From Raillietiella orientalis (lineage: Eukaryota), in contig JAYWIR010000087.1 of NCBI GenBank assembly GCA_036172245.1, positions 124,001 to 188,000 on the forward strand: a stretch of DNA of 64,000 bases, written 5' to 3'. The position numbers and the translations under genes were made by a program. The notes below the pieces were generated by a model. The model ran no database searches and was not told where the DNA came from. It saw only the letters and a list, made by a program, of their open reading frames with translations. Shown piece by piece: positions 9,579-63,025 of this stretch (positions within the stretch are counted from its first letter, which is position 1; each line of letters opens with the position of its first letter).

Positions 9579-12019
9579 GATTGAAATCTCCCTCTATCAG
9601 GTGAGCCTTCCGCACGTTGATGTCCGCCAGCCTGTCGCGCTTCAGAGATTACAGCAACCTGATGCGGTCGCTTTATCCCTGTTTACCGCTGGGGGCGTAC
9701 ACATTCGTGACGATCATTTCGATCGAATCGGACCAGCTGAGAATCAGGTGACCGACCCGACCGTCGTCATCGAATTGCACGCCCTTCACGACAGCGTCGA
9801 TAGCCGGCTTCACAAAAAACGCAACTTCGCAGGTGCTCCGGAGGCCGCATCGCCAATACAACCGACCCCCCGCGATCGTCTTCATCTCCTGGGCGTCTGC
9901 CGCGGTGATCACGTGGATCTCCTTCAGCAGCGCCAGGTCGAGCTCACGCAGGGTGTCGGCCGTATCTCGCCTGTTGCCGTCGTCGCGCAGCCCGTTGACG
10001 TTCCAACAGGTCGCGCGAATCCGAAGGCGACTGGCGTGCCAAGGTGTTAGTCCTGGGGAAACGGCGATGGGGCGTCCGCCACCTGCTGGGGAGGGACGCT
10101 AGGTGGAGGGGGAGTGGGGACAGGTATTGAAGGCACCTGTTCCTCCTCCTCCATCGGTGCCGGCGCGTCGGCCGGATCACCCGCAGGTGGAGTCGCGCCT
10201 ACCTCTTCGCCCTTCTCCATGGGTTCGGGCTGCTCAGGTTTCGCGACTGCGGAGGGGAACTCACCCCCCTGCACACCCTCCTCCATGGGGGTGGCCGAGT
10301 CGACGGCTTCCGGGCGTGGATATTCCCCCTCCGGGATTCCCACGCTGCCGCTTCCTTCCGGCTTCTCCTCATCGCTGGTGGAGGGGAGGCGCCTACTGGG
10401 TTTCTGGGACTTACGTCCCGACTTCCTGGGGGGTGCCTCCGAGGAGAAGGATCCGCCTCCGTCCTCCAGGTCGCACTCACCTGCGGGGCCTTCTTCGTCG
10501 GAGCCGACCTGCGTACGCCCTTGCGCGACGGGGTTTCGCGCTCGGCAGCGTTGCTGCGAGCTCATCCGCCTCTTTCTCGAAGGCCGCGTCTTCCCCAGCG
10601 GCGACCGTGGCCGCGATCTGCCCCGCGACCTTATCGAGCGCGGCGTCATCGCTGACGGCGAACGTTGTTGCGGGCTCCTCCGCGACTTTATCGAGCGCGG
10701 CGTCCTCCCTGTCGGCTCGCGAGTCTCGCGTCTTACCCTCTAAACGTAGAATGGGCTCGTCCACGCGAGTATTCATCGCGTCCGCATCAGCTGTTCCGCG
10801 AACATTGCTGCGGGCGGACTCGGCAGGAACGGCTACGCGTTCCAGTGCCACCGAGCATTTGCGGAGTTTTTTTTTTTTTTTTGAAAGCGGCGCGGCTTTT
10901 TTCTTGTTGCCGGCAGTTTTCTTCTCCGACTTTTCTTCTGCCATTAATTTCTTTTTTTCTTTTCTGGCCTGAACCAGCTGCCAACCCTCCTCCATTTCCG
11001 CGTTCACGGGAGCTCTTTCCTCCGACGTCTGTACGGGAGGAAGGGAGGCTGGCAGTTGGGAAAGGCCATTTTCGCGAACTGGTCTTTCTACCAGCTTTCC
11101 ACGTTTTCCCTGCGCCTTTTTGGCGGCAGGGGGCACCGGGGTGGGGCACTTGGGGCACAAGCGTTCAACGTGACTTTTTTCGCCGCATAGGTGGCAAACA
11201 ATGTTTGGGCATCTTCTTCGTAGATGCCCTACTGAATTGCAGTAGCCACAAAATTGGCATTATCCAACCTACCAGAGGTCCACCGCTTCTTGGCAAACCT
11301 CCAGCTTGTGAAGAAGCGCCCCACCCTCTTTTACGGTGATACGCGCCGCAGCTTGACCTCCGAAAAGGCTATTGTAGCATTGGAAAATCGTGGACTTCGG
11401 CCACAACGCGTGCACTTCTGCTTGTTTTTGTAACTGCTCACGAACCGCTGACCTAGTCATGCGACTGGAGATCCCAGTGAGATGGACCACCAGAGAGCGG
11501 TATATCGTCACCGGCAAGATCTTGCGACCATCAACGATCAGCGGGTCGGTGATCAGGCGTCGGGCCAAGGTGATATCCTTGCATACCACCTCGACCCGCT
11601 GCCCTCCGCTGAGGACGCAGAGGCCGTCAAGATCTTTTTCGAAGATATTGGCGTTCTGCAGCGCATTCGTAAAGGCGCGTGCAGTTCGCCCATCGAAAAG
11701 GTTGCCTACCTTGTAGACTAGCGAGGGTTTATACCCCGCTTCCTTGTAAGCTTCCATCTTGGCCATGGCTTCAACGCTAGGCGCTACCACCATATCGCTC
11801 CATGACCTCGGCGTCGCCGGGGACGATTCCGGGGCGTATGCCCCTGATCCAGTAGGCTGTAATGGCGAACAAGCATCTTCCACGCCTACTTCCATCGCGG
11901 TGTCCTCTGGCAACGCTGCGATCGGACACCGACGATGTGCACGCACAAATCACTCCAGAAAAAACCAGTCGCTTTCCCACGCAGGCGGAGCCCAGGAAAA
12001 GCACGTCCTTCCTCCACAG
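9579..12019 (-). mobile_element. 5' part of family A element (5' UTR, ORF1, EN up to GDFN)
   Basis: Starts CTGTGGAGGAAGGACGTGCTTTT. ORF1 pieces are 11269-11946 and 10477-11160, followed by TAACA at 10045-10049 and EN WNVNG..NVYAP. Closely similar to 37541-39980. Confidence 0.9.
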
Positions 12020-14946
12020 CGGGAATTCGGCGAAGGGGCTCGCTAGGAACGCGCATATTTGCACGCGCGTCGTCACGAGAGGCACCCCAATGTCCGTCGC
12101 CTGGCCGAATACTGCGCCGGAACCCAGCGACAATCCTGGCAATCCGGGTCATCCAGCATGCTGGTAAACTTCGGCCGGGAACGTTCGTCCCCGTCTGCGG
12201 TGCGGAATCTCCTGCAATGTTTTGATTCCTCCCTTTACGCCAAAACACCACTTGAACAAGACGCCTCGTAGCGATTGCTCATGAGTGGTTCCGTGGCGAT
12301 AAGGGAGGAGGGAGAATTTCACGACTGGTGAAATTCTCGTCGGTATCAAAAGGCTCAAGAGTCGTAAGGCTCCAGGTGAGGACGGCTTGCCCGCGGAGTT
12401 CTTTCAGAGTTTCGCGGAAGAGCTGGCCCCCCTGGTGGTCGAGTTGACAAGGCGAATCCGAGAAGAAGGCGATGTTCCCGCCTAGTTTTGAACAGCCAGG
12501 GTGAGGCTCCTCCCAAAGGGAGGAGACCTCAGCAAACTATGCAACTGGAGTCCGATGAGGATTGTGAACACGGACGCCAAGTTGATTGCCGGGCTGTGGG
12601 CGCGTCTCGTTTGGGGCAGGTGTCCAATTCCATAATTAGCCCGCAGCAGACTTACGCTGTTCCCGGACGAAGTATGGAGGACAACCTCTTCTTCGCGAGC
12701 ACATGGATGCACGCGCAGCAGTGTAAGAGAGAAGGGAAAGGGAGAATTTGCAACCCTACTTTGGAGCCGCCAGTGAGACAGAGTAGGGACCCTCATGCGG
12801 AAAAGAGGGCCTTAGCGACCGCAGTCGACCTTCATATGGCATTCGACTGTGTTGACCAGGAACTCCTCTTGGAGCTCCTGCATCGAATGCGCTTCCCACC
12901 CTCCTTGATTACCTACCTGCGCTCTTGCTGGCGGAACGCAATAATCTCGATTACCTTCAGTGGACAAAAGGTGTATGGCGTGCCGGTGCGGCGGGGCATA
13001 AGGCAGGGCGAATGCCTCAGCCCCCTGCTTTTTAGAACCTACGCTGAGTTCGTGCTGAGTGCGTACAGGGTGACTTCGGGCCCCTTGCCGAGGTCGTGCC
13101 CCGGCACTCCAGCCGTAGCGGCGTATGCCGACGATCTTCTGCTCCTCCTACCTATGTGCACCCCGGCGAAGGCGGTCAAAGATTTTTTCGACCTGCTTAG
13201 CCGTGGGTCCGTATTAAAGGTTACCAGTGCGAAGTCGTCGGTGTTGCCAGTAGGAACGACGTGGGCAGGGCAGAAGGACTGGGTCCGTCTGGGGATCCCC
13301 ACGGTGAGGTGCATCCAGTACCTCGGTGTGCCGTTGGGAAACTTCTCACTTGTGCGTGCGTGCTCCAGCTAACTCCAAAAAGTAGAGACGGCGATCGGGC
13401 CGTTCCTGGAAGGCAAGTTTCATTTGACGGAACGGGACGCGGTTTGGAACGCCTTCGCGGCCCCCATCCTCCGCCCCTTGGTTTTTGTTTGCTCCGCTTC
13501 CCTGGAATCTTAAAAGCGGACGAGGGACCTCCTCCTCATAACTCTTTGGAACAAGGGGAGGCCCCGAGTCCCTTTGAAGGACTTGTGCGCTCCGCGGCGG
13601 GACGGCGGTATCAGCATCCTGAAGCTGGAGCGCGTGGAAATCCAGCTACGATGACGGAATCTCGCCATCGCAGCGAAGATGTGGAGCACTGCTTCGTGCA
13701 TTCAGGCCCGCCTCTTGGCCAGCCGTGTGTCCCGCTGCAAAGGACTCGCATCGTTTCTTCTGTGCCCTGGCCGGAACATTCGAAGATGCGGTCTACTGCT
13801 CGGCCGCATGACAACCCTGGCAAAGGAGAACGACTGGATGGTTTGTGGCCCTGCCAACTCCTTCGCTTGGCTGGAAGAGACTGCTGGCACCTGGGCCAAG
13901 CAGAACCAGAGGTGCGAACACCGGATGAACTGCCTACGATTCGGCTTTTACGCCCGCCGAACACCGTGAAATTCTTGAATTTCCACCGAGTTCACATGGG
14001 CGGAAGGCACACCCCTTGTTACGGCGATGCCCTTCCTCCAAAGAGCGCTTCACGAAAGCCGGAAGCCAAGGTGGCAAGTCTGCTGCCGTATCGCAGGCAG
14101 AGAGCAGATGATGAGCAGCTGGACCATGGTTGAGATGACAGATGCAACGACCCCTAGTCTCCAGCCGCGTGGATTGAGAAGATGGGGCGAGGTGCTCGGC
14201 ATTCGATTGCATGATCTGGATTGGCCCCCGGTTCTACTTGGATCCAGGATTCTTCCCCTGAAGTGGAAAGAATCGGCGCTTCTGTGGCTGCATTGAAGTC
14301 TACCCTGCAACGCGCGCCGCTTCCACTGGACCCGGGGAAGAGTAAATCCTGCGTGTGCCAGGTGTGGGGATCGGGAGTCGCTCCCCCACCTCCTAGTCGA
14401 ATGCCCTGCCATTCGGATTCTTTGGAATCGTCTTAAAACGGCACTTGCGATACCAAATGGTGGCAATGTTGGATGTGTCTTCAGTCCTTTCTTCGTCCGG
14501 GACGCCCTGAGTCCAGCCGCAGCCCTGGCTGCACTTTGCTGGATTCGTGGTATCGTGGCGGCCTGGAGTGATGCCGAAGATAAAGACTGCATCGTGAGGG
14601 ATGTCATCGAGTATGCTTCTCGCTTTCTGCAGAGGGCTACCCGATGACCGCATCTAGGGAAAATGAGACAGGGACCAGAAGGCATCCTTGAAAGGATGGG
14701 CCCTCTTAGCAGTTTTCTGTGATCCCTTCCCGGCCCTCCAAACTTTTTTTCGTGGTTTGTTTTTCTCTTTTATTTTGTTTTTGTCTTCTCCTCCATCCCT
14801 CTTTACTGCCGAGGAGACCCACACCGAGCTGCGTCCCGGTGTCCCGGCATTTCCGGTATTGCGTTTCCGTCAGTGGGGCCTTGTACCACGTTCTGTATTG
14901 ACCGTTGAAATGTTTTTAATAAACCTCCAGGCGTATCCGCGTGGCA
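12020..14946 (+). mobile_element. 3' part of family A element (linker, RT, zinc finger, 3' UTR)
   Basis: Begins at REFGEG. ORF 12488-13372 has AVDLHMAFD, GIRQGECLSP, YADD, QYLGV. A CARC..ESLPHLLVEC finger lies near 14350-14405. It ends AATAAACCTCCAGGCGTATCCGCGTGGCA. Confidence 0.9.
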
Positions 14947-16586
14947 TCGCCGAAACCTAGAGGGAGATGGTTCAGGGAAAACCGGTCGAAGAACTCGCGG
15001 ACTGAGCTCTTCAAGTCGTCCCAGTCCGGGAGCGACTGCAGATGGAAGTCTTGCCGGAACAAGCAAATATGTTGCGCTGCTCCTGCGAGGCGCAACCAGT
15101 CCCTTGGCAAATGCCACGCTGTGGAGGGTGGACCTCTACCACGAGGGTGTATTTATATCACGAGCCGGGGATGGTCGGAAAGTTCGGATGGCACTGCCCC
15201 TCGATTTCCCACCCGTGAACAAAGGTGGTTGTCGAGGAACATGTGGTCGTTCCTCGTTTCCGTCCCGGCGTCACCGGCCAACAAGTTGCGCGCGTGCATG
15301 GCAGCGCACATCTCGTTGACCAGCTGTGCGCGAAAGTCGGGCGCACCTGCCAGCAGGCGGACGTTAAAGTCCCAGGCAATGAGGTGCGCCTTTCGCATGT
15401 CTGCTTCGGCCAGCCAATCTCGCCGCAGGCCTTCGAAGAACGCAGTGCGTTCCCTTCGCCTGTGGCTCGTGCCGGACGCGTACACGTTGGTCACGACGAG
15501 GTCGATCGCGTCGGACCACTTAGCAACAAGCTGCCCGATTTGACCTTCCCCGTCGAAGTGCACGTCGCGAAGCGCATTAACAACGGCTGGCTTCAGCATG
15601 AAAGCCACACCGCGGGTGCGGTCTCTCCTGTTCTCGTATAGTAGCCGCACGCCTGCGATCCGTTCGATTTCCTGGGCCTCCTCTGCGTGGAGCACGTGCG
15701 TCTCCTGCAGAAGCGCCAGGTCGAAGTCCCGCAGGCTAACGGCCACATCTCTGCTCTTGCCCTCGTCGCGTAAACCGTTGACGTTCCAACAGATTACGCG
15801 CAGTCGCCGGCAGGAGGAGAGTCCACGCGTTGGTGTGTTTATGGTGTTTGCTTATTGTCCTCCTGCTGCTGTGCAGCAAGCGTGAGTTGTGTGTCCATTG
15901 CGATATGCTGTTCCTCGGAAGAAGGCGGTCCGTCGGTGGTTGTGGTGGTGGTTGCAGGATACTTCTCCGCCGAGACCGCCTGCGGCGAGGAGTCGCGAGA
16001 CCTAGCGGACATCGCCTCTTCGTCGTCGTGGTCCGACCTCATTTCTTCCTCCGCCGCTGGAGGTGCGGAGCGCCGCGGGTTGCCTACCTTGCGGTCCGCT
16101 TTGCGCTTCGGCAGAGCGACAGCCGGAGCGTTCCCGGCATCGGCTTCGGACTCGGAAGTCTCCGGTCCTTTCGCCTCAGTTGGACGCCTAAAGACCTTCT
16201 TCTCGGCCTTAAGAGCTTGCTGGAGCATGGCTGCCAACTCTTCCGCCGCCTTTTTGTAATCCCGGTCGTCGCTGCTCACGCTGGACTCGCGACTTTGTCG
16301 CGGAGTCGTCGTTCGCGCGGCGGCATGTGGTTTACACCCGGATGTGCCGGGGCATTTATTTCTTAGAAATAAAATTACAGAAAAATGTTGCGTGGCGAAC
16401 CCGAAGGTTCACCACTCCAAAACAGCTTGCTGGTTACCGGCTCCGTGCCGGAGAGGTCCATCCGATGCGCGGGGGTTGGGAAAGAAAAAAAACAAAAAAC
16501 AAACAAAAAGTTGAAGTATGGGAAGAAACAAATGTTTTGGGAATGGGAGGGCAGGGAGGGGATCACCGTGCGCGCGGATAGGTCCT

Positions 16587-19500
16587 CTAGATCCTATTCA
16601 GGATCCGTACAAGCTGAGTAATATCTGCGCCCAAGTGGCGCCACTTGCAGACGTCTCGGACGAATAGGCGAGTGAACCGTAAGGCATTGCCGGTTGGCTG
16701 ACGTCTTCTTCTGGTGGCGTTCCAGGCCGCAACGATCCCTCGAATGCAGCAGAGGACTGCCTCAGAAGAGGGGGGGGACAAGGCGTCACTACGGAAGAGG
16801 AGCCTAAAAACGTCCTTAGGGTCGCATCCGCGCAAGTCCAGGATCGCCGTAAGGCGATCCCATAAAGGGCGGATGGCACTGCACTCGATGAGAAGGTAGG
16901 GGAAGGTCTCTTTTTCCCCGCACCGGTCACAATAAGGATCCACAGCCCCCCGGGTTGTGTGATGAAGGCGTGCTTTGAATGGAAGTCCCCAGAGGACCAC
17001 AAGGAAAGCCACATCCTGCCATTTCAGGGGGAGGGATGCACTGTTCCAGGACGCTGAAGGCCACTTCATCTCCTCCGGAGATAGTCCGAGTAGCTCGCCC
17101 CAGCGTCGAATTCCGTTGGGCGGGACACTCGGCGTCGCAGCGTCAGCTAGCTGCCGAGATGTCCACGCCTTTATCGATTTTGTCCTGCCGCCTATAGTGC
17201 AGGACACGGTCCATTTCCCCTGCTCGCTACTGTCCCTGGCATTCACAAGGAAGGGCAGCACTGGGGCGAGGGGGGTTATCAAGGCCCACAGAAGCTTGTC
17301 GTGGGACTGCACGATCTCCTGCAGCGTCCAGCGGGCGTGCCTATTCATACAAGTGTTCCTTGTGCCCGCCGGAACTTGGATCTTTTCCCAGGTGGAGACT
17401 GACTCGTGCAAACAGGCGGAGTAGTTCCCTGGGAGCCAGGAGATCCAAGGGTTCTCCCGAACCGCAACAAAGATGCGTCGCAGCATAGAGCCACAGTATG
17501 GTCTTCTGCAGACGCGCGCAGACAGAAACGACAAAAGTCCGTCGAATCCGCAGGCTCATTGGGCCAGGAAGCGTGCTGAAACGCACCAAGGCGTGTCCCA
17601 CAATTCCGCCGCAAGGGCGAGAGTCCTCAATCTGAGTTGTAGTTCAATGCGCTCCAGCGTAACAACGCCTAGTCCTCCGTCCTTACGTGGAGCGCACAAG
17701 TCTTTGAGCCTCACACGGGACCTCCCTTTGCCCCAAAGGACTGTCCTCAGGAGACCCGCTGCTCGTTTTCGGATAAAATAAAAGGCGGGGCAAACAAAAA
17801 GTAGGGGGCGAAGGAGGGGAGCCGGAAACGCGTACCACACCGCGGCCCGTTCCTGCAAGTAGAACCTGCATTCTTGGAACGGACCGATCGCCAACGCTGC
17901 CTTTTGGAGACGGTCGGACCAGGCTTCTGCTGCGCAGAAGTCCCCCAACGGTACGCCGAGGTACTTGAAGCACCTGCCCGTGGGGATCCCCAATCGGATC
18001 CAGTCCGACCGTCCAGCCCACGCCGAACCGACGAAGACCATGGACGACTTCGCCCTGTTCACCTCCAGGCCCGTCCCGCGGCGCAGCAACTCGAAGAAGT
18101 CCTCGAGTGCACTCGCCGGGGTGGACCCGGGAAGCAGCAGCAGAAGATCGTCTGCATAGGCCGACACGGCAGGCGTGCCGGCACACGAGCTCGGCAGTTT
18201 TGCCAGAGTTACCCTGTATGCCCTCAGCACCAACTCGAAGTAGATGCTGAAGAGCAAGGGGCTCAGGCTGTCACCCTGCCGGATGCCGCGGCGTACGGGC
18301 ACGCCGTACACGTGCCGGCCGCTGAAACCGATATTGATTGACGCGTTGCGTCAGCAGGAGCGCAGGAAAGATTGAAGCACGGCGGGGAAACCCCTTGCGT
18401 TCCAGGAGCTCCAGAAGGAGATCCTGGTCGACGCAGTCGAATGCTTTGTGCAAATCGACCGCGACGGCAAAGGCTCCCGCCGTAACCATCCCACCCTCTG
18501 CCCGATCTTCTCGGTCAGAGGGGGGCGCGAGGCATCCTTGACCGTCCTGTGCAACGCGTTGTCGCAACTGCCACCATGAACTGGCGAGGAGCAGGTTGGC
18601 CTCCATGGTTCGTCCGGGAACAGCATAGGTCTGCTCGGGACTCACCACGGAAGCGGCCACCCGCCCCAAACGCTCAGCTTACAACTTGGCATACAACTTT
18701 GAGTCCGCATTCACTACTGTGATGGGACTCCAGTTGCCAATGTTGCGTAAGTCTCCTGACTTCGGCAGGAGACGTACTTTAGCTGACCGGAACGAGGAGG
18801 GAACTTCGCCGTGTTCGCGGATCAGCGCACTTAACCTGAGCACCAGGGGGGCCAGCTCTGGCGCGAAGCGATGGTAAAACTCCGCGGGCAGGCCGACCTA
18901 CCCTGGTGCCTTCCTTCTCTTGAGCCTGTTGATGGCGGAGATGATCTCCGCCATCGTGAACGGTTCCGCCAATCTGGAACGGTCCTCCTCCTTGAGCGCG
19001 GGAGCGGCATCCGGCAGCAGGCGCTGCGCTAAATGGCGCTCAGGTGTTAGTGGCGCGTACAAGGAGGAATAAAACTCCCGCACGATGCGGCTCACCTGGG
19101 CTGGGCTGGAGCGTTCTTGGCCCTGATGATCCAGCAGGCAGGCCGAGCCTGACTGCCAGGCCTGCCTCTCCGCCTCAGCCTTGAATTCAGCCAGGCGACG
19201 GACGTCGGGACGCCGGGAATAACGGCGCGCCTGGAGGTACGCCCGCTCGTTCCTGACACCCTCACCGAAGCCCGGCGGGAGACGTTCCAGCGGAAACTGG
19301 TCGCAAAACTCACGGACTGAGCACTTCATTTCGTCCCAGTCCGCGAGCGTCTGAAGCTGGAATCCTCGCAGGAAACACCGTAGATGTTCCGCCGCTCCTG
19401 CGAGGCGCAACCAATCCCCTGGCAGGCGCCATGTTTTCAGGGGAGGGCCCTTATTGTGCGGATGTAACTCGAGCACGAGCCGTGGATCGTCGGACAGCTC

Positions 19501-20145
19501 TGCCGGGAGCTTTCCTCGAGTTCCCACCCGCGTGCACAGGTGGTTGTCGAGGAACATGTGGTCGATGTTCCGATCTCTCCCGGCATCGCCGGCGAACAAG
19601 TTGCGCGCATGCATGGCTGCGCACAACTCGTTGACCAGCTGTGCTCGTCCGCTGAACGCACCTGCCAGCAGGCGGAGATTGAAATCACCCGCAATGAGGT
19701 GCGCCCTTCGCACGCCTGCTTCGGTCAACCAGTCTCGCCGCAAGGTTTCGAAGAACGCAGTGCGTTCCTCGGCCCTGCGGCTGCTCACCGGAGCGTACAG
19801 GTTCGTGACTACGAGGTCGATCGAGTCGGACCACTTGAACACAAGCTGCCCAACTCGACCATCCCCGTCGAACCGTGCACTGCGCAGTGAGTTGTCGACG
19901 GTTGGCTTTAGCAGAAAGGCCACTCCGCAGGAGTTGTCCGTTCCGTTCCTCCACAGTAGCCGCCCTCCCGCGATTCTTTCCATTTCCTGGACATCTCCCG
20001 GTCGGAGAACGTGCGTCTCTTGCAGGAGCACCAGGTCGAAATCTCGCAGTATGGCGGCTACATCTCGCCTCTTTCCGTCGTCGCGCAACCCGTTGACATT
20101 CCAACAGGTGATGCGCAAGCGGCGGCAGAAGGCGAGCCCACGCAC
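16587..20145 (-). pseudogene. ORF2 AP endonuclease / RT / C-terminal CCHC finger, disrupted
   Basis: ORFs 18898-20145 (EN and linker), 18271-18669 (AVDLHKAFD), 17556-18311 (GIRQGDSLSP, YADD, KYLGV) and 16587-17534 (CDRC..ETFPYLLIEC). Confidence 0.93.
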
Positions 20146-20153
20146 TGATGCGT

Positions 20154-24800: not shown

Positions 24801-25148
24801 TCACACATAGCTTCGAAGACCTTGATGGTTTCTTTCTAATGATCTTTCTCACCTGCACCCAGCCGTCTTCCTTCGCGTCGCAGTTATCTTTGCCATCCTG
24901 AGATGGCGCTGCTTCCACGGATGTAAGAGGCGTTGCCTTGGCTGCCTCTTGGAGTGCTGCCTCCAGGCAGGCGTAAGCAACTCCCCTAGCGATCGCGAGA
25001 GCCTTGCGCACGGGCGGTATCGCCGCCGCTGAACGAAAGGGAGGCGTGATTATTGCTAGTTTAAAACTGCACCCAATACCCCGCCAAGGCACTGTTCAAA
25101 ACCACTGCCAAGGCAATTTTTGAGTGCCCTGAGAGAGCAAGTGTTTGA

Positions 25149-49552: not shown

Positions 49553-49879
49553 GAACGGCGTAATCCGGTGACCCCGGCGACCTCTCGCCCACCCATACCC
49601 CGTCCCCGTTCGCTCGGTAAAATTTCCGGTGCCCATGCTTTTATCCCCGTGTCTTCCAGAGCGATCCCAAAGACCCTTATCCCGTCCTCCTGATTCATTG
49701 TTTTTATTTTATTTTGGTTTCTTTGTGTTTCCCGCCCCCCCACACCGTTCACAAAACTGTTACTCTGGCCTGCCTGCCAGCAATATTCTCTTCATTCTTG
49801 TTCAGTCGTCGGTTGGGAGTTTGGTTCCCAACTGGTTTATTTTGTATAATTGCTTTTTTTTTTTGGTTATGTTATATGG

Positions 49880-49909
49880 AATAAACGCCCCGGCGTGACC
49901 GGGTGAGAA
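49880..49909 (+). other. Conserved 3'-terminal AATAAA plus CCCGG-N5-CCGGG stem-loop (representative copy)
   Basis: Recognisable at 11 element ends in the window. See findings. Confidence 0.8.
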
Positions 49910-50072
49910 ATCTCCCGGGCTTGATCTGCGGAGATTACGTGGATCTCCTTCAGCATCACCAGGTCGAAGGATGCCAGGGTGGCGGCCACGTCACGCCTCT
50001 TGCCGTCGTCGCTTAGCCCGTTCACGTTCCAACAGGCGATCAGAAGATGACGGCGAGAGGCGATTCCCGGCA

Positions 50073-51731: not shown

Positions 51732-54700
51732 TGCTGCCTAATCCTCCACCCACACCACGCACAAGCACCAACGGAAATATAACTCAGCAGCAACGAAAAG
51801 ACACGTCCGCTCGACGCTCCGGAATCTCCAGGACTGGGACCTTCTTAAGGAATCGGTCAGGGAGTACTGTGAGTAGTTCCGTCTGGATCGCCTGCCCCCG
51901 GATTCGGCGTAGGTGCTCGCAACCATCGGGCTTATTTACAGGCTCGTAGGTACGAGAGAACCCCTAATGTCCGTCGCCTGGCAGAGCACCGCGCCGGGAC
52001 CGAAAGCCAAGCCTGGCAATCCGGGTCGGCCAGCTTGCTGGACGACCAGGGCCGCGAATGTTCGTCCCCGGCGTCGGTATGGCATCTTGTGCGGAGTTTT
52101 CAATTCTATCTTTACGCCAGGGAGCTCTCGGATACAAACGCCTCTCGGCGCATGCTTTCGGATGGCGTCCCGGCAATAGAGGTGAAGGAGATGGAAAGCC
52201 TCGAAGATCCTTTTACCACCGGCGAGATTCTCGCCGGTATCAAAACGCTCAAGAGACGTAAAGCTCCAGGGGAAGACGGCTTGCCCGCGGAGTTCTTTCA
52301 GAGCTTCGCGGAAGAGCTGGCACCCCTGCTTCTTAAGTTGATCAGGCTGATCCGAGACGAAGGAGATGTTCCCGCCTCGTTTTGTTCAGCCAGAGTGAGG
52401 CTCCTTCCGAAAGGGGTAGACCTCAGGGATTTAAAGAACTGGCGTCCGATCACGATCGTGAATACGGACGCCAAGTTGATAGCAGGGCTATGGGCTTCGC
52501 GTCTGGGGCAGGTAGCACAATCCGTAATCAGCCCGGAGCAGACTTATGCTGTTCCCGGGCAAAGTATGGATGCCAACCTCTTCTTCGCAAGCATATGGGT
52601 GCACCAGCAGAGAAGAGAAAAGAAAGGGATAGGGAAAGTCGGCAACCCAACATTGGGGCCGCCAGCCGGGCTGGGAAGGGAACCCGGGCGGGAAAGGGGG
52701 CTCTTGCGCTCGCAGTCGACCTCCACAAAGCGTTCGACTGTGTAGACCAGGAACTCCTCTTGGAGCTCCTGGGTCGCTTGGGCTTCCCACCCTCCCTTAT
52801 TTCCTACCTGCGCTCTTGCTGGCGGAATGCGATGAGTACCGTCTCTTTCAGCAGCCAAAAGGTGTATGGCGTGCCGGTGCAGCGGGGCATAAGGCAGGGC
52901 GATAGCCTCAGCCCCCTGCTCTTCAGCACCTACTCTGTGTTGGTGCTGAGAGTGTACAGAGTGACTTTAGCCCCATTGCCGAGCTCGTGCCCCGGCACGC
53001 CCGCCGTATCAGCGTACGCCGACGATCTTCTGCTTTTGTTCCCAATATCCACTTCGGCAAAGGCGGACGGAGACTTTTCGATCTGCTCAGCCGCGGGACC
53101 GGACTGCAGGTTAACAGGGCGAAGTCGTCGGTTGTGCCAATAGGTGCGGCGTGGGCAGGGCAGCAGGAGTGGGTCCGTCTGGGAATCCCCACGGCGAGGT
53201 GCTGCAAGTACCTTGGTGTGCCGTTGCGGGAATACTCCCCTGCGAAAGCGTGGTCCAGCTGCCTCGAAAAAGTCGAGACGGCGATCGGCCCGTTTCTGGA
53301 AGGCAAGTTTCACTTGCCGGAACGGGCCGCGGTTTGGAACGCCTTCGCTGCCTCCATCCTCTGCCCCTTGCTTTTTGTTTGCTCCCCCACAGTGGAATCC
53401 AAGAAGAGGACAAAGGACCTCCTCCGTATCGCCATTTGGGGAAAGGGGAGGCCCCGAGTCCCACTAAAGGACTTGTGCGCTCCGCGTCGAGACGGCGGTC
53501 TTGGCCTCCTGACGCTGGTGCGCGTAGAGAAGCAGCTGTGGTGGCGAACCCTCGCCATCGCAGCGATGATGTGGAGCACCCCTTGGTGCACTCCGGCCCG
53601 CCTCCTGGCCAGCCGTGTGTCCCGGTGTGATGGACTCGCGTCTTTTCTTCTGAGCCGTAGCCGGAAGATGCTAAGATGCGGCCAACTGCTCGGGCGCATG
53701 GCAACATTGGCCAAGGAGAACAGCTGGATGGTTTGCTGCAACGCCAACTCCCCCGCCTTGCTGGAGGAGAATATTGGAACGTGGGCAGTAGTTAACCAGA
53801 GAAGTAACGAGACGTGGAATCGTCTCCGATGCAGGCCCTACGCCCGCTGCACGCTGCTGAATCTCCTAGAGAGTCCAGCAAGAAGCACGTCCGCAGAGAC
53901 GACCTGCCTAGCTACGGCGCTGCCCTTCCTAAGGAGGGCACTTCACAGCACCCGGACGCCAATGTGGCAAGTCTCCTGCTGCATCGTGGGACGCGAGAAG
54001 TTGATCAGCGGCTGGACAACAGGAGAAATGGCCCAAGCCACGACCCCGAGCGTCCAGCCGCGAGGATTATTAAGATGGGGCGAGCTGCTCGCCATCCCCA
54101 GGGATGAGCTGAAGTGGCCCCCTATGATAAAAGAATCCAGGATCCTGCCCCTTAAGTGGCAAGAGTCGGCGTTGCTTTTGTTGCACTGGGGTCTACCCTG
54201 CAACGCGCGCCGCTTCCACTGGACGAGGGGAGCTGTGGATCCTGCGTGTGCCAGGTGCGGTTAGCGTGAGTCGCTTCCCCACCTTATTGTGGATTGTGCT
54301 GCCCTCCGACCCCTTTGGGAACGGTTCGGGAGGACCCTAGAGCTCCCTACAGGCAGCAACCCCAGAGACGTTCTTCGGCCCCTCTTCGTGAAGGACGCAC
54401 TGCAGCCAGCCGCAGCCATCGCAGCCTTGTGCTGCGTCCGTGGCATCGTGGCGGCATGGAGCGACGCCAACCACGAAGGAGTGGGTCCACAGGCGAGGGA
54501 TGTCATCCCGTATGCCCAACGCTTCTTGCGAAGAGCTGCCGGATGGCCCCAACTGGGGAATATGCAGACTGACCTCGAGGGCATCGTTCGACGGATCGGC
54601 CCTCCCACAGCGACCAATGATCCCTTCCCTGCCCTCCAACTTCTTTTTGTTTGTTTCTTTGTATTTTACTTTTTGTCTTATCTCCATCCCCCTTTGCTGT

Positions 54701-57700
54701 GGGGAAGTGCCACGCCGGGCTGTGTCCCGGTGTCCCGACAGGTCGCGTGTTTACGGCCGTGGTGGGGCTCGTACCACGCATGTAGAGTTTACAAAGAAAC
54801 GCCCCGGGCGTACCCGGGTGACAACGCCGAATTCCCGGGGCAGACGTTGCACTGGGAAGTGTTCGCAGAACTTCCGGACTCAGTCCTTAAATAGGTCCCA
54901 ATGTGCGAGACTCTGGAGGGTGACGCCTAGCAGGAATTCGCAAAGATGTTCTTTCGCTCCTGACAGGCGCGTCCAGTCTCCTGGCATACGCCAATCCCTG
55001 GATGGCGGTCCCTTGTCGCGCGGGTGCATCTCGAATAATAACCGCGAATCGTCCGACAGCGTCGATCCAAGTGTCCCTCGTTTTCCGACCCGTGTGCACA
55101 GGTCTTCGTCGAGGAAGACGTGGTCCACGCTGTTGACCATCCCGCTTATTTCTGTCAACAAGTTGCGCGCGCGCATGGCGGCGCACAACTTGTTGATCGC
55201 GTTCCCCTGTGCTCCGGGCTGATCTGAGAGCAGACGGACGTTGAAATCCCCTGCTATCAGATGCGCCTTTCGCACGTCCGCGTCCACCAGCCATTCGCGC
55301 TTTAAGGTTTTCAGTAACGCGTTGCGCTACTGGTATTCCTGTTTACCGCTAGGAGCGTACACATTGGTGACGATGAGGTCGATCGAATCGGACCATCTGA
55401 GAATCAGTTGGCCGATCCGTCTGTCGTCCCCAAAGCGCACGTCCTTCACGGCCGCGTTAATGGCTGGCTTTAGGAAGAACGCGACCCCACAAGTGTTGCG
55501 GGCGCCGCATCGCCAGTACAACCGCCCTTCTGCGATCGTTTCGATCTCCTGGGCATCTTTTGCGGTGATCACGTGGATCTCCTGCAAAAGCACAGGGTCG
55601 AAATCTCGCAAGGTGGCGGCTGTATCTCGTCTGTTTCCGTCGTCGCGCAGCCCGTTAACATTCCAATTGGCCGCGCGGATCCGACGGTGACAGGAGAGTC
55701 CGGCTTCCGGCGAAGGGCTGAGGAACGATTGGGCATACCACCAAGCCCTCGTTACTCTAGGACTTCCGACGTTTGAGGCCTGGCTGAGTATAAAGCTGGG
55801 GTTGAGCCACAGACCTTACAATCAAGGTCGGCCAGCTTGCCGGACGCCCAAGGCCAGGAATGCTCAGCTCCGGCGAAAATTAACCGCATCCTGCGGGACT
55901 ATTACTCCTCCTTGTACGCGAGTAGAGCAACAGAGCGCGTTGTGGCGCAGCGCTTGCTGCCGCAAGGCGCCCCCGCGCTACAGGAGGAGCAGGCACATTA
56001 CTCGAGGAGCCTTTCTTGAAGGCAAAGATCGTCTTCGCCATCGGAAAGCTCAGAAAGAGGAAAGCACCTGGGGAAGACGGTCTGCATGCGGAGTTCTACG
56101 AAGGCTTCGTGGCATAGCTGGCCCCCCTGGTGCATCGGCTTTGCATGCTGATCCGAGAACAAGGGGACGTCCCCAAATCGTTCCGGTCAGCTAGAGTACG
56201 TCTCCTGCCGAAACGAGGAGACAATCGCAACGTAGGCAACTGCGTCTCATCACAGTAGTGAATGCGGATGCAAAGTTGCTTGCCAAGCTTTGGGCTGAGC
56301 GACTGGGAAGGTTGGCGGAATTCTTAGTGAGTCCGGAGCACACATACGCTGATCCCGGACGAAGCATTCAGGCCAACCTGTTCCTCCCCTGTACATGGTG
56401 GCAGTTGCCACAAAGCGAAGACCAGGGAGGTCAAGAGAATCCAGGATTCTCCTCTGACCAGAAAAGGGACGCCCTTCATGGAAGAGCCGCGCTCGGTTCC
56501 CTTGCGGTCGCAGTCGATCTGCGTAAAGCGTTCGATTGCGTCGACCAGGAACTGCTTCTGGAGCTCCTGGAACGCTTGGGATTCATGGCTGTCTTTTGGG
56601 CTCAGCTGCGCTCCTGCTGCGCTTCGCTTTAATAAACATCTGTTTTAGCGGCCGGCACGTGTACGGCGTGCCGGTTTGGCGTGGCATAAGGCAGGGGGAC
56701 AGTCTGATCCCCGTGCTCTTCAGCATCTACTTCGAGCTGGTTCTGAGGGCATCCAGGAAGACTCTGGCAACCCTGCCGAGCTCGTGTCCCGGCACGTCTG
56801 CCGTGTCGGCTTACGCCGACGACCTTCTTCTCCTCCTCCCCGGGTCCATTGCGGCGTCGGCGCTCGAAGATTTCTTTGAGTTGCTGCGCCGCGGGACGGA
56901 CCTCGAGGTAAACAGAGAGAAATCTTCCATCGTTCCAACATCACCACTACTTTTAAACAATACGGCGTGGGCCGGACGGCCGGACTGGATTTGCTTGAAG
57001 ATCCCCACGGGCAGGTGCTTCAAGTATCTTGGCGTTCCCTTGGGGGACTTCTGCGTTGCAGAAGGCTGGTCCGACCGTCTCCAAAAGGTGGAGTTGGCGA
57101 TCGACCCGTTCCGGAACGGCAAATTTTACTTGCAGGAGCAGGCCGCGGTGTGGAACGCGTTCGCGGGCCCCCTCCTTCGCCCCTTAATTTTTGTTTGCCC
57201 CGCCCCTCCCATCATACAGACACGGAACGAAGCCTTCTCGAGGACTGCCCTTTGGGGCACAGCGAGGTCGCGAGTCCGATTGAAGGACTTGTGCGCTCCA
57301 CGCAGGGATGGTGCCTTGGGCCTGCTTACGTTGGAGCGCATTAAACTACAAACAACACTTCGAAAGTTAGCCCCTGCGGATAGCTTATGGATGATGCCAT
57401 GGTGCGATCCGGCACGGCTCCTTGCCAGATGGGCGACCTGGTGCGAAGGATTGCCCTCGATCCTCGTGGCCTACCAGCGCAGCCTCTCGAACTGTGGCCC
57501 TGATTTGCGCCATATGGTCGCCCTGATGAGGGAGAATACCTGGATCTCCTGCATCCCCGCGAACTCCACTGCCTGGCTTCAGGAGTCAGCTTCCGCATGG
57601 GCTAAGATCAACGGCACGAGCGAGGGGGAATACAACTGCCTACGACGAAGACCGTACGCTCGACAGCCGCTGCAGGAGATTATCAACACGTTCCGGAAGT

Positions 57701-58684
57701 TTCTATGGGCTTCTTTTCGCCCCCTTGCCCCCGTTCTGTCGTCCTTAAAAAACACTAGGAGCAGCAACGAGCGGGCATCGTGGGAAGTGACCTGCCTCAT
57801 ACAAGGCATGAAAAAACCTTTAAAGGCGTGGACGACTCGGGAGCTCACGGACGCTGCCACTTCGAACGTCTCGCCTCACGGACTTGCGCGCTGAGGAGAG
57901 CTGCTCGCAATACGTCTGGAGGCGGAAAAGTAGCCCCAAGCGTGTCGGGATTGTGGCACACTTCCCTAGAAGTGGCAGGAGAAGACGTTGCTATTTCTGC
58001 ACTGGGGACTGCTATGCAGAGCACGCCTGTCTTAGTGGACACTGAGAATGTGGATGCCCGCTGTGTCGAATGCGTTAAAAGAGGAACCTTCTTGCATCTC
58101 ACCCTCGAGTATGTCGCCCTGGATTGATTCTGGAGTCGAATTGCCCCAATCCTCCATCTTGAAGTAGGCGACCCTAAGGAAATTTTCCGTCGCCTCTTTC
58201 TGCGTGACGGCCTGCGCCCCGCTGCGTCTCTAGCAGTCCTCTGCTGCGTGCGCGGCATTGTGCAAAGGTGGCACGCAAGAAGAAGAGGCCCAGGATGCAA
58301 GGACGCCATGCACTAAACAAGGATCTCTTTGGAGACGGCGACAAGGTGGCGTCTACTCTTCACAGTGAAAGCAGAACTTGTCTGAATCCTAAATAGGATG
58401 CGAAGGACTGAACCAGGCGTTTAGTGATCCCTTTCCTACACCTTACCTCCTAATAGAACTGTTTTCCACCCGGTTATCTCTCTTTTTGTTTGTTTTCGTT
58501 CTAGTTTTTCCTTCCCATGCGCCTCGGGAATGGATCTAACCGTTCTTTGCACCGGCAATCGACACGTCAAGCAAGGTGGGAGAACTCAGTGCTTCCTTAG
58601 AGAATACATTTTTTTTAAGAGTTCATTATGTAAGTTTTGTTAAAAATTATTATAATAAATGTCCCGGCATATCCGGCTGACAAA

Positions 58685-58890
58685 CGGCGAACGCAATTAT
58701 TGTGCGCTCCGTGGATAAACAGTTTTTTCTCTGGTGTTTCTTGTGTGTTTCGCGTCCGTTGACAGGCAGAAATGCCTGTGAACGCCGCAGTTTCAGGTGA
58801 GAAAGGCGAGAAGACCGCGTCTCCCAAGCCAAAGGAGGTGGGATCACGCCACACCACTACTTTTGAACCTTCCTTAGCCACTACGGTGTC
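58685..58890 (+). mobile_element. Short 5' UTR and ORF1-start fragment, near copy of 22935-23135 in reverse
   Basis: GGCGAACGCAATTATTGTGCGCTCCGTGGATA..ATGCCTGTGAACGCCGCAG matches the 5' end of the family C element at 23135. Confidence 0.8.
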
Positions 58891-60909
58891 TCGAGCTCCT
58901 GGGCGTCTGCCGCGGTGATCACCTGGATCTCCTGCAGCGGAGCCAGGTCGAGCTAACGCAGGTAGTCGGCACTATCTCGCCTGTTACCGTCGTCGCACAA
59001 CCGGTTGACGTTCCAACAGGCGGCGCGAATCCGACGGCAACTGGCGAGCCTTGGTGTTACTCCTGGAAAGATGGCGATGCGGCGTCCGACATTTTTTGGG
59101 ACGGAACGCTAGGTCGAGGAGGAGGGTCAGGCGCTGAGTGCACCTGGTCCCCCTCCTCCATGGGTAACGGCTCGACAAGCGGGTCACCCTCAGGTGGGGT
59201 CGCGCCTACCTGTTGGCATCCCTCCATGGGGGCGGGTTGTTCAGGCTCGGCGACTGCAGGGAGGACTTCGCATCATGCTCACTCTACTCCATGGGGGTGG
59301 CCGACTCGACGGCTCCCGAGCGTGGGAGTTCTCGCTCCGCGAATCCCACGCTTGCGCTACCTTCTTGCTTCTCCTCATCGCCGGCTGAGGGGAGGCACCT
59401 CGTGAGTTTCTAGGAGTTGCGTCACGACTTTCAGGGGGCTGCCTTCGAGGTGGAGGATGCACTTCCGGTTCCCAGGTCGAACTCACCTTCGGGGGCCTTC
59501 TTAGGCGGAGCCGGCCTTCGCACGGTCTTGCGCGAGGAGGTCTCACGCTCGGTCAGCGGGGCCGCGAGCTCCTACGCCGCCTGCGCGAAAGCGGCGTCCA
59601 CGGCTTCGACCGTCGCTAATTCGCGCGGCTCACCCTCTGTGTAAACAGAGGGTTCGCCGTCGCAAACATCGGGCGCGGCGGAACCGGCGCGGGTAGGCTC
59701 GTCACCCGGGTGGCAGTCTCGAGAAAGGCTATGCGTTCCAGTGCCACTGTACATTCCCGCATGGTCTTGGAGCGCGGCTCAGGTTTTTCCGCCTTGCCAG
59801 CTGTCTTTTTTACCGGTTTCGCGGTTTCCGCGGGGCGCACCTTTTTTTCCGTTCTGGCGTTTACCAGCTCTTAGCCGTCCTGGACTCCCGCTTCTTCTTA
59901 AGGTTTTTCTTCCGAAGCCTGTGTGGGAGGAAAGGATGCTCGTGGCTGCTGCCGGCCAGTACCTCGTTTTGGTTTTCGAACAATTTACCGCGTTTTGCCT
60001 GCGCTTTCTTTGCGGCAGACGAAACGAAAGGGGGCGTTTAGGAAACACGCGGCGCACGTGGCCCTTCTCCCCGCATAAGTAACACACAATGTTCGGACAC
60101 CTCCTACAAAGGTGTCTACTGCATTGCAGTAGCCACAAAAGCAAGGTTTCTGCACGAAGGAGAGGTCTACGACTTCTTCATTGACCTCGAGGTTGCGGGG
60201 AAGCCCACTATCCTTCTTTACGGTCACACGCGCGGCAGCCTGCTTTCCGAAAAGGCTATCGTAGCCATCGAAGATTGTGGCTTTCGGTCATAGCGCGCGT
60301 ACTTCGCCGTATTTTCTGAGCTGATCACCAACCGCAGACCGCGTCATGCGGCTTGTGATCCCAGTAAGATGGATCACTACGGAGCGGTCCATCGTGACAT
60401 GCAGGATCTTGCGTCCGTCCACGTTCAGCGAAGAAGTAATCAAGCTTTTCGCCAATGTGATGTCCTTGCAGACATCCTCGATGCGCTGACCCCGCTGACA
60501 ACGGATAGACCGTCAAGATTCTTCTCTAACACGTTGGCGTTCTGCAGCGCCTTCGAAAAATCGCCTGCAGTTTGTCCGCCAAAGAGATTGCCTACCTGGT
60601 ACACCAGGCTGGGCTTGTATCCAGCTGTCCAATAGGCTGCCATCTCGGCCATGGTTTCCGCGCTCGACGCGGCCACCATGGCGCTCCAGCTCCTCGCCTT
60701 GAGAGGCGAGGGCGATTCCGGGCCGGACGCCCCTGATTCTGTAGGCTGTGGGGGTGGGCAATCCTCTTCCACACCTACATCCATCGTGGTGTCCTAAGGA
60801 ATCGCTGCCATCGAACAACAACCAAGTTCCCCACCAAAAACAGCACAAAAAAAACCGCTTCCTGTCGACACACTGGGGAGCGGAGGAAGAGCACGTCCGC
60901 TCGCCACAG
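58891..60909 (-). mobile_element. 5' part of family A element (5' UTR, ORF1, EN start), degenerate, similar to 1-1620
   Basis: 5' CTGTGGCGAGCGGACGTGCT, GYKPSLVYQVG, TAACA at 59055-59059, and WNVN..LQEIQV. Confidence 0.85.
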
Positions 60910-60918
60910 GTTTCAACG

Positions 60919-63025
60919 TTATCACACTGGTATGCCCGATGCGTTCATTTGTAAACTCTACATGCGTGGTACGAGGACTCACCACGGCCTTAAACACAGG
61001 ACCTGTCGGAACACCAAGACGGAGCCCGGCGTGGCACACCACGACAGCGAAAGGGGATGGAAATCAACCAAACAGAAAAATAAAAAAGAAACAAACAAAA
61101 AGAAGTTGGAATGCAGAAAAGGGATCACTTGTCGCTGTGAGGAGGGCCCATCCGTTGAAGGAAGCCCTCGGAGTCCATCCGCGTATTACCCAGTTGGGGC
61201 CGTCCGGCAGCACTTCGCAAGAAGCGTTGGGCATACGGGATGACATCCCTCGCCTGTGGGCCCACTTCTTCGTTCTTGGCGTCGTCCCATGCCGCCACGA
61301 TGCCACGGACGCAGCACAAGGCTGCGATGGCTGCGGCTGGCTGCAGTGCGTCCTTCACGAAGAGGGGCCGAAGAACGTCTCCGGGGGTGCTGCCTGTAGG
61401 GAGCCCAAGGGTCGTCCCGAACCGTTCCCAAAGGGGTCGGGGGGCAGCACAATCCACAATAAGGTGGGGAAGCGACTTCCGCTCCCCGCACCTGGCACAC
61501 GCAGGATCCACAGCTCCCCTCGTCCAGTGGAAGCGGCGCGCGTTGCAGGGTAGACCACAGTGCAACAAAAGCAACGCCGACTCTTGCCACTTAAGGGGCA
61601 GGATCCTGGATTCTTTCATCATAGGGGGCCACTTCAGCTCATCCCTGGGGATGGCGAGCAGCTCACCCCATCTTAATAGTCCTCGCGGCTGGACGCTCGG
61701 GGTCGTGGCGTCGCCCAGTTATCCTGTTGTCCAGCCGCTGATCAACTTCTCGCGTCCTTCGATGCAGCAGGAGACTTGCCACTTTGGCGTTCGGGTGCTG
61801 TGAAGTGCCCTCCTTAGGAAGGGCAGCGCCGTAGCTAGGCAGGTCGTCTTTGCCCACGTGCATCTTGCTGGACTCTCCAGAAGATTCCGCAGCGTGCAGC
61901 GGGCGTAGGGCTGCATCGGAGACGATTCCATGTCTCGTGGCTGTGCTGGTTTACCACTGCCCACGTTTCAATATTCTCCTGCAGCCAGGGGGGGAATTGA
62001 CGGGGCAGCAAACCATCCAGCTTTTCTCCTTGGCCAATATTGCCATGCGCCTGAGCAGTAGGCAGCATCTTCGAATCTTCCGGCCACGGCTCAGAAAAAA
62101 AGACGCTAGTCCATCGCACCGGGACACACGGCTGGCAAGGAGGCGGGCCGGAGTGTACCAAGGGGTGTTCCACATCTTTGCTGCGATGGCAAGGGTTTGA
62201 AACCGCAGCTGCTTCTCCACGCACTCCAGCTTCAGGAGTCCAATACCGCCGTCCCGACGCGGAGCGCACAAGTCCTTCAAAGAGACTTCGGGCGTCCCCT
62301 TGCCCAAAGGGCGATGCGGAGGAGGTCCTTTGTCCTCTTCATGGATTCCACGGTGAAGGGGCAAACCAAAAGCAAAAGGCGGAGGATGGGGGCCGCAATG
62401 ACGTTCCAAACCGCGGCCCGTTCCGGCAAGTGACACTTGCCTTCGAAGAACGCGCCGATCGCCGTCTCGACTTTCTGGAGGCAGCTGGACCACGCTTTCG
62501 CAGGGGAGTAGTTCCTTAACGGGACACCAAGGTACTTGGAGCACTTCGTCGTGGGAATCCTTAGACGGACGCATTCCTGCTTCCCTGCCCACGACGCACC
62601 TATTGGCACAACCGACGACTTCGTTCTGTTAACCTGGAGTCCGGTCCCGCTGCTCAGCAGATCGAAAAAATCTCCGACCGTCTTTGCCGGGGTGAACACT
62701 GGCAAGGAGAGCAAAAGATCTTCCGCGTACGCTGCTACGGGGGGCGTGCCAGGGCACCAGCTCATCAAGGGGGTTAAAGTCACTCTGCACGCTATCAGCA
62801 CTAAATCAAAGTAGGTACTGTAGAGCAGGGGGCTGAGGTTATCTCCTTGCTTTATGTCCCGCCGCACCGGCACCCCATACATCTTCTGACCGCTGAAGGA
62901 GACGCTTATCATCGCATTCCGCCAGCAAGAGCGCGGGTAGGAAATCAGAGACGGTGGGAAGCTCATGCGACCAAGGAGCTTCAAGAGGAGTTCTTGATCA
63001 ACATAGTTGACCGCGTTATGCGCTC
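60919..63025 (-). mobile_element. 3' part of family A element (RT C-half, zinc finger, 3' UTR)
   Basis: ORF 62277-62984 has IKQGDNLSP, YAED and KYLGV. ORF 61125-61622 has CARC..SLPHLIVDC. A decayed 3' motif lies at 60919-60949. Confidence 0.88.

Follow-up and report, generated by a model that had tools for sequence, protein, structure and literature searches.

Reuse of one nucleotide position in the ORF2 linker of related LINEs by antisense insertions of a LINE family in Raillietiella orientalis

Nearly all of the 64-kb window analysed here (64,000 nucleotides of Raillietiella orientalis contig JAYWIR010000087.1, positions 124,001 to 188,000, renumbered from 1) consists of pieces of long interspersed nuclear elements (LINEs) lying on both strands. 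One group of these elements, family A, has been inserted repeatedly at the same nucleotide position in the second open reading frame (ORF2) of LINEs of its own lineage, within the (G/E)FGEG codons between the endonuclease (EN) and reverse transcriptase (RT) domains. The junctions, the orientation of the inserts, the target-site duplications (TSDs), the nesting and the restriction to one family can be read directly from the DNA, and the number of independent insertions at this site is at least three and at most six. Family A and its relative Q probably insert by target-primed reverse transcription from a sequence-specific nick in LINEs of the same lineage.

In intact copies, EN and RT are joined by a segment reading ...FPLxRLPxGFGEGxRNERAYLQAR. 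The insertion site falls within the (G/E)FG codons of this linker; the segment alignable to the RT of human L1 ORF2p follows about 60 residues further downstream. The 3' ends of family A (...GACAA or ...GGCAT) adjoin the reverse complement of GG(T/A)(T/A)TTCGGCG, with the insert always antisense to the host. Four of them are located at the site, at 14947 (+), 34610 (-), 54824 (+) and 60919 (-), where they are followed in element sense by CGCCGAAACC, CGCCGAAACC, CGCCGAATTCC and CGTTGAAACC, respectively, and in all four the same nucleotide is joined. Two full-length 5' ends (CTGTGGAGGAAGGACGTGC), at 12019 (-) and 37541 (+), each adjoin CGGGAATTCGG(C/T)GAAGGGG of an antisense host that runs on as ...AR*ERAYLHAR. 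A further end at 55701 (-), 5'-truncated at about EN residue 9, adjoins GGCTTCCGGCGAAGGG at 55702 (+). A scan for copies of the linker yielded seven uninterrupted sites, three upstream halves that end at the site and three downstream halves that start there. Family A itself bears the site (GAATTCGGCGAAGGG). All seven junctions listed in the earlier note were recovered at most 1 nt from the positions given there, and its description of inserts that are always antisense, reuse one nucleotide position and lie in hosts of two families proved accurate. As for recurrence, reuse of the position is borne out, while the seven junctions are the two ends of a few insertions and not seven events.

The deepest nest spans 33730-58684, where the order H1'(A2a(A2b(B(R)B)A2b)A2a)H1' closes perfectly over five layers. 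The outer host H1', a member of the G/F family, is represented upstream by 33730-34609 (+), which runs from the ORF1-EN spacer through EN as far as the GFG codons and closes with a copy of the site, GGTTTCGGCG, at 34600-34609. Its downstream half (55702-58684, +) starts with GGCTTCCGGCGAAGGG, the TSD copy occupying 55702-55712, and continues through RT to the 3' end ...CCGGCTGACAAA at 58684. Inserted in H1' is A2a of family A, flanked by the duplication GGTTTCGGCG / GGCTTCCGGCG. Its upstream half (54825-55701, -) is truncated as described above and ends at 54825 with ...CCCCGGGAATTCGGCG (TSD copy 54825-54837); its downstream half (34610-37540, -) starts at 37540 with CGGGAATTCGGTGAAGGGG in EFGEG codons (TSD copy 37528-37540) and runs through RT to the 3' end ...GGTGACAA at 34610. 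A2a is in turn interrupted by A2b, a full-length family A element of about 5.77 kb, which has a 13-nt TSD, CGGGAATTCGG(C/T)G, on both halves of A2a. The upstream part of A2b (37541-40316, +) contains the 5' end CTGTGGAGGAAGGACGTGC, ORF1 with a CCHC knuckle and a frame for an apurinic/apyrimidinic endonuclease-type (APE) EN at 39556-40320, and closes with the LRNL codons and the TSD copy CGCTACGGAATCTCCA at 40301-40316. The downstream part (51817-54824, +) resumes at the TSD copy (CG)CTCCGGAATCTCCA at 51815-51830, retains an uninterrupted site, GGATTCGGCGTAGGT, at 51900-51914, and passes through RT to the 3' end ...GGGTGACAA at 54824.

The two inner layers of this nest belong to other families. 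Element B interrupts A2b in antisense orientation at its LRNL codons, which precede the GFG site by 25 codons, and is flanked by a TSD of 14-16 nt, (CG)CT(A/C)CGGAATCTCCA. Its upstream part (49911-51816, -) includes the 5' end (...TCGAGCGGACGTGTC) at about 51814-51816, ORF1 and EN to residue ~67, and its downstream part (40317-43960, -) extends from EN residue ~62 to the 3' end ...CCCGGGTTTCAA at 40317. At the centre lies R (43961-49910, +), the best preserved of the elements, whose ORFs measure 586, 366 and 836 amino acids; it interrupts B in antisense orientation at EN residues ~62-67, with a TSD of about 10-12 nt, approximately GC(C/G)C(G/A)GGAGA (junctions 43946-43976 and 49898-49923; ...GGGAGA/). 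Over the whole nest the TSDs measure about 10-16 nt per layer. Decay rises outward: R keeps long ORFs, and in the alignment of downstream halves A2b has one stop upstream of the stop common to all six rows, A2a ten and A1', of the left nest, twelve. As an observation in its own right, the antisense position of family B at the LRNL codons (40301-40316 and 51815-51830) constitutes a second defined LINE-in-LINE site, seen as one event in the window.

A second nest at 9580-16330, three deep, repeats the outer three layers of the first. Its outer host H1 is represented by an upstream part at 14948-16330 (-), which ends at 14948 with ...TAGGTTTCGGCG and is 92% identical to H1' over 592 nt. The middle layer is the downstream half of A1' (12020-14947, +), starting with CGGGAATTCGGCGAAGGGG and reaching its 3' end ...CCGCGTGGCAT at 14947; its 3' 1.2 kb belongs to another subtype than that of A2a (66-73% identity). 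The inner layer, H_A of family A, has its full-length 5' end at 12019; its upstream part covers 9580-12019 (-) and continues at 3687-2695 beyond an inserted element (the window's element R2). H_A was cut by this element and later by a 3' end of family A subtype A1, of which the 3' untranslated region (UTR) and 3' end (...CCGCGTGGCAA) occupy 2552-2694 (+). This A1 end lies antisense in the RT codons ...NAYAKLL of H_A, and the earlier note was right to report the end at 2694 as located elsewhere than the common site. A third locus consists of a lone copy of the site, GGTTTCAACG, at 60909-60918 (+), between the 5' end of Q (58888-60908, -), which is about 70% identical to family A in the 5' region, and the 3' end of the family A element A2c (60919-63020, -). 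A single 10-nt site between two element ends argues for two successive insertions into one duplicated site.

At least three events are counted as independent, namely A2a into H1', A2b into A2a, and Q and/or A2c at 60909-60918; they agree in antisense orientation and nick position, with TSDs of 9-13 nt. The two insertions of the right nest are not copies of one event, since their hosts are different (68-69% identical in the 580 nt beside the junction, the inserts themselves being 84% identical) and carry different variants of the site (GGTTTC versus GGAATTC). The scenario named beforehand as the one that could overturn recurrence, a single ancestral insertion amplified by duplication, fails on the position of A2b in A2a in H1', on the dissimilar hosts and on the separate TSD of each insertion.

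The target string itself is not rare. With up to two mismatches, the 12-mer TTCGGCGAAGGG has 11 matches in the window against 10.9 expected, and enrichment of the motif was dropped as an argument because the 12-mer is not over-represented. The signal therefore lies in the coincidence of the junction positions: for an element of ~5.8 kb and two possible orientations, the probability that a second and a third independent insertion fall within a few nt in the same orientation is, by hand arithmetic, of the order of 1e-6 to 1e-7. Of the five family A 3' ends four lie at the site, and of the six 3' ends of other families in the window none does (p = 0.015, Fisher's exact test by hand). The other families are inserted at six places and in both orientations: at LRNL codons, at EN residue ~65, in sense at GDFN codons, in an ORF1-EN spacer, in the ORF1 of another element and directly before another 5' end.

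The occupied sites also differ in sequence from those left intact. The three that can be reconstructed read TTC(C)GG(C/T)GAAGGG, and none of the seven uninterrupted sites (TTTGGAGGAGGG, TTCGGTGAGGGT, TTCGGGGAAGAC, TTTGGGGAGGGG, TTCGGAGAGGGC, TTCGGCGTAGGT and TTTGGGACCTGG) is like them (p = 0.008 by Fisher's test, again by hand; p = 0.028 if A1' and A2a are counted as one). The uninterrupted sites of R, D and B encode GFGEG with two to three third-position differences. Occupancy thus correlates with the nucleotide string and not with the peptide. The target had been described in advance as a conserved coding motif of the clade of family A. This holds insofar as GFGEG is kept among the families of the window; however, distant L1/Tx1-like proteins have unrelated residues at this place of the linker (e.g. 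...RKRKSANKER...), the peptide being specific to this lineage, and occupancy tracks nucleotides.

In the mechanism considered probable here, the sense strand of the host would be nicked at 5'-GG(T/A)(T/A)TTCGGCG/AAGGG-3' (final slash, nick), within the linker codons for (G/E)FGEG, and the freed 3' OH would prime copying of family A RNA from its exact 3' end. Priming from a nick in the host sense strand accounts for the antisense position of the insert. A cut of the other strand 9-13 nt upstream would duplicate the site, and reuse of the duplicated site would give rise to head-to-tail pairs 10 nt apart. Since family A carries the site, new copies land in older A copies and build up nests in the manner of Russian dolls; the G/F family is hit as well. 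By analogy with Tx1L and R1-type elements, reading of the target sequence by the encoded endonuclease would be the simplest explanation; the order of the nicks is a proposal as well. The precise 3' end, devoid of a homopolymer, makes a 'stringent' hairpin type of template recognition probable. That the family A endonuclease is sequence-specific, as the earlier note had put it, is borne out as far as insertion is site-specific, antisense and restricted to one family, whereas the role of the enzyme is deduced and annealing of the RNA offers an alternative, in that read-through RNA with the complement of the target could refine the register or fix it outright.

Several observations weigh against this mechanism. 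All counts come from one 64-kb window, and this single-window basis is what mainly limits the significance of the finding. One of the five family A 3' ends, that at 2694, is off-site. A near-perfect string, TTCGGCGAGGGG, at 4689 stands in another context and is unoccupied, so that either the surrounding sequence has an influence or too few sites are at hand. The contrast between occupied and intact sites involves few sites and is confounded with family, as the intact sites belong mostly to other families, which show many differences in any case. A related public contig run (X1) accounted for 13% of the sampled words, with related LINE contigs in all 30 bins of 37000-56999, and provided no usable genome-wide census of junctions. 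A metagenome scan with a 16-mer of the family A 3' UTR returned 82 loci, none with further similarity, i.e. chance matches. Lastly, the left and right nests are colinear: they are 85% identical over 6010 nt and remain alignable to 16198/33730 with a 371-nt indel, altogether about 6.6 kb at 85-92% identity, and A1' and A2a have a TAG stop in common that is two changes away from the AAC of the other copies. Two apparent events may therefore be copies made at the DNA level. In a low-depth contig (2.14) of run X1, 32 nt separate an A-like 3' end (to 54815) from an A-like 5' start (from 37551). These 32 nt include a spacer of ~11 nt with no more than a loose resemblance to the site, and the contig hints weakly at a further tandem pair. 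The 5' end of R (43961) coincides exactly with the start of a second contig of this run, which does not span the junction.

The colinearity could be carried further, to a history in which segmental (inverted) duplication and gene conversion multiplied one or two ancestral insertions, with recurrence reduced to copy number. The intervals 9579-16198 and 39982-33730 are indeed colinear through two junctions, the shared TAG stop fits such a history, and the identity of the middle layer is a mosaic typical of conversion: 83-90% (mean about 87%) in the first 1.75 kb and 66-73% in the final 1.2 kb, a stretch in which A2a is closer to A2b and A2c (80-91%) and the 3' termini are of different subtypes. 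Duplication nevertheless cannot produce A2b in A2a in H1' with separate TSDs and hosts that are 68-69% alike, nor the lone 10-nt site at 60909-60918, and is refuted as the whole explanation. Moreover, each copy has its own frameshifts and, apart from the one shared TAG, its own stops (private stops: nine in A2a, eleven in A1'), and divergence is unequal between the layers (about 7-8%, 12% and 30%). Between left and right inner layers omega, the ratio of nonsynonymous to synonymous change, is 0.36 (EN) and 0.61 (ORF1) in frame as opposed to 0.94-1.57 out of frame: the differences are biased to synonymous sites, the inner layer diverged in part under selection, and separate inner insertions in the two nests are thereby hinted at; the outer layer, with 0.68 in frame and 0.80-0.93 out of frame over 197 codons, is uninformative. 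On balance, duplication as the source of the whole pattern is quite unlikely. A history in which the outer two layers were duplicated at the DNA level, part of one copy was converted and each duplicate then received its own inner A insertion is consistent with the data but unproven. Still less credible is that the junctions arose by rearrangement, be it inversion, twin priming or template switching, with the GAATTC of the linker as a fragile or palindromic spot, although both partners break at the same codons, as an in-place inversion would leave them, and the A-type site does hold the GAATTC palindrome. Complete 5' and 3' termini stand at the junctions, host duplications of 9-16 nt flank each insert, the halves pair in strictly nested order and the H1-type site has no palindrome. 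In-place inversion and twin priming were rejected on the complete termini, the TSDs and the strict nesting.

The alternative closest to the proposed mechanism assigns the precision to RNA. Since all source copies lie in the site, read-through transcripts would end in CGCCGAA(A/T)(A/T)CC, and a loosely specific endonuclease would suffice if these paired with the nicked ...GG(T/A)(T/A)TTCGGCG-3' and so set the place and register of priming, similar to what has been described for R1-type elements. In agreement with this, the complement of the primer strand follows every family A copy at the site, the 3' junctions are exact to the nucleotide, and the off-site copy at 2694 indicates machinery able to use other DNA. 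However, annealing alone cannot choose the position of the first nick, the AATAAA located ~25 nt from the 3' terminus points to transcript cleavage at the end of the element, and two site variants (GGTTTC... and GGAATTC...) were used by closely related inserts. Annealing is thus considered improbable, if less so than either duplication or rearrangement, and cleavage by a sequence-specific endonuclease is retained as the preferred reading. A tentative extension of the latter, itself doubtful, is homing of LINE against LINE: the A endonuclease would have evolved to cut a string in its own and in rival ORF2, knocking out a competitor or older sibling at no cost to the cell, while families would survive by synonymous recoding of GFGEG. 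LINE-only islands would be created and maintained in this way, as at some algal centromeres.

The elements of the window are L1/Tx1-like LINEs with a CCHC ORF1, an APE-type endonuclease, an RT and a hairpin at the 3' end. More than 50 LINE fragments were mapped by tblastn with the most intact copy as query, and the GC content is 0.53-0.62. Among the translated frames, zf-CCHC (ORF1), Exo_endo_phos (APE endonuclease) and RVT_1 are present, and in several copies Exo_endo_phos is followed by RVT_1, placing an APE-like EN N-terminal to RT in ORF2. ORF1 lies upstream of ORF2, and a Cys-His motif, C-x2-C-x7-H-x4-C, is located C-terminal to RT (CLRCGEIESFPHLFLDC, read in translations). The zf-CCHC match of ORF1 is weak (E = 3e-4 to 2e-3 in three frames), with 21.2, 18.9 and 18.5 bits against a curated cut-off of 20.8, which one of the three frames reaches. 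The EN of A2b forms an open frame of 254 amino acids that matches positions 3-225 of the 225 positions of the Exo_endo_phos profile (E = 4.7e-13). For both domains the closest solved structures are of human LINE-1 ORF2p (EN, E = 1.3e-10; RT, E = 3.5e-36). The Atlas cluster nearest to the RT (score 0.97) is automatically named 'Transposon TX1 uncharacterized 149 kDa protein', which serves as a lead to membership in the Tx1 group and not as a test of it. An EN-linker query against 1.84 billion representative proteins gave 0 matches at E <= 1e-30 and 28 at E <= 1e-10, and a search for homologues of the EN-linker ORF among proteins of near length gave no match at E <= 1e-5; by these searches, near relatives are few and the LINE lineage of the window is poorly sampled.

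All eleven element 3' ends in the window (2694, 3688, 14947, 16331, 33217, 34610, 40317, 49910, 54824, 58684 and 60919) have an AATAAA ~25 nt before the end, a CCCGG-N4-6-CCGGG hairpin and a terminal ...AA(A), and none carries a poly(A) tail of the kind typical of mammalian and plant L1. The AATAAA together with the exact ends suggests that the transcript is cleaved at a canonical poly(A) signal and that reverse transcription starts exactly at the end of the UTR. The 5' ends have ...GGACGTG(C/T)TTT... in common a few nt inward. Five of them are full length (12019, 37541 and 60908 as well as those of B and R), compared with one truncated A copy at the site.

Further junctions in the window involve other places and elements. 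Element R2 (3688-9579, minus, full length) is inserted in sense orientation at the catalytic GDFN codons of H_A with the TSD TTTCAA(T/C) (3674-3687 and 9580-9592), and element D (16331-21912) has the same sense orientation within the ORF1-EN spacer of H1; hence, not all families insert antisense. The 371-nt stretch of H1 at 15544-15914 that is missing in H1' (34013/34014) is an indel between the colinear nests. A1 is devoid of about 1.8 kb between RT residue 284 and the 3' UTR (2551/2552). At 1684-1700 (+), a Q-like EN residue ~88 is joined to an A1-type RT residue ~1 with ~12 unassigned nt in between, reflecting either an internal deletion of ~840 nt, GFG site included, or the meeting of two elements. 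Q is broken at 58888 (...CTCGAGA/), 6 nt from the place equivalent to the insertion of R in B, and adjoins there no 3' end but 203 nt from the 5' part of a G-type element (58685-58887). This G-type 5' end (CGGCG(A/G)ACGCAATT...) directly follows the 3' end of H1' at 58684/58685 without a spacer, and the same 5' end adjoins, in sense orientation, the start of the RT region of the minus-strand element T at 23134/23135; the G-type junctions may reflect either head-to-tail joining or yet another, third type of target. Two additional 5' ends are antisense in RT codons, that of W at the ...KAFD codons of A2c (RT residue ~214, 63020/63021) and that of V at RT residue ~88 of element E (30768/30769). 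A divergent plus-strand element at 24300-30700 contains RVT_1 at 26478-28457 (E = 2e-34). Its RT is only 31% identical to the others, the adjoining frames that were searched gave no Exo_endo_phos match, and the element may represent a different clade of retroelements.

Known targets of site-specific LINEs are rDNA, small RNA genes, telomeres, microsatellites and, for Tx1L, a DNA transposon; human L1 has a loose TTTT/A preference. A site-specific L1/Tx1-like LINE is in itself nothing new, but coding sequence of LINEs of the own lineage would be a new class of target. In the literature searched, no LINE described as targeting LINE coding sequence was found, which is not proof of absence. If the proposed mechanism is correct, it provides a self-reinforcing way to build islands made of retrotransposons only, and a direct interference between transposon families that predicts escape through synonymous codons. 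It would also represent a natural specificity of 10-13 nt in an L1-like endonuclease, to be compared with the TTTT/A of human L1.

The nearest analogue is Tx1L. In the sections considered of Cosby et al. (2019, PMC6719617, citing Christensen et al. 2000), Tx1L and Tx2L of Xenopus laevis are L1-clade LINEs specific for sites in the DNA transposons Tx1D and Tx2D. Common to both cases is an APE-type LINE of the L1/Tx1 kind with a defined target inside another transposable element (PMC6719617, same sections). In the present case, however, the target is not a DNA transposon but the ORF2 linker of LINEs of the same lineage, family A copies included, and the antisense insert disrupts the ORF2 of its host element.

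Nested clusters formed by insertion into existing copies, as encountered here in the five-deep and three-deep nests, are also a feature of Zepp (Chlorella/Coccomyxa) and ZeppL (Chlamydomonas), L1-type LINEs said, in the parts covered of PMC8226300 (2021), Blanc et al. (2012, PMC3446292) and PMC9940879, to target existing copies and to form nested, putatively centromeric clusters. The parts covered of these three papers give no defined Zepp target sequence (the original Zepp descriptions lay outside this scope), and the literature covered, PMC8226300 and PMC3446292 among it, does not state by what mechanism nested clusters of the Zepp type arise; the insertion proposed here would, if true, be a concrete mechanism for such nesting. 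The two systems differ in that Zepp and L1-1_CR end in poly(A), according to the part of PMC3747384 considered, whereas the elements of the window do not, and in that Zepp arrays consist mostly of 5'-truncated 3' ends (PMC8226300, part covered), whereas most copies here are full length. Clusters of Zepp and ZeppL number one per chromosome, putatively at the centromere.

A fixed site, a fixed orientation, a precise 3' junction and a multicopy 'safe' target are shared with R1/R2 and TRAS/SART, the target-specific LINEs of multicopy genes and repeats (background in the parts considered of PMC3747384 and PMC4640811). The EN and RT of the window are nonetheless nearest to human L1 ORF2p; R2 proteins match far more weakly, and at E <= 0.01 the search recovered no R1/TRAS endonuclease. 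Unlike the targets of R1/R2 and TRAS/SART, the target of family A is not a host gene or repeat but another selfish element.

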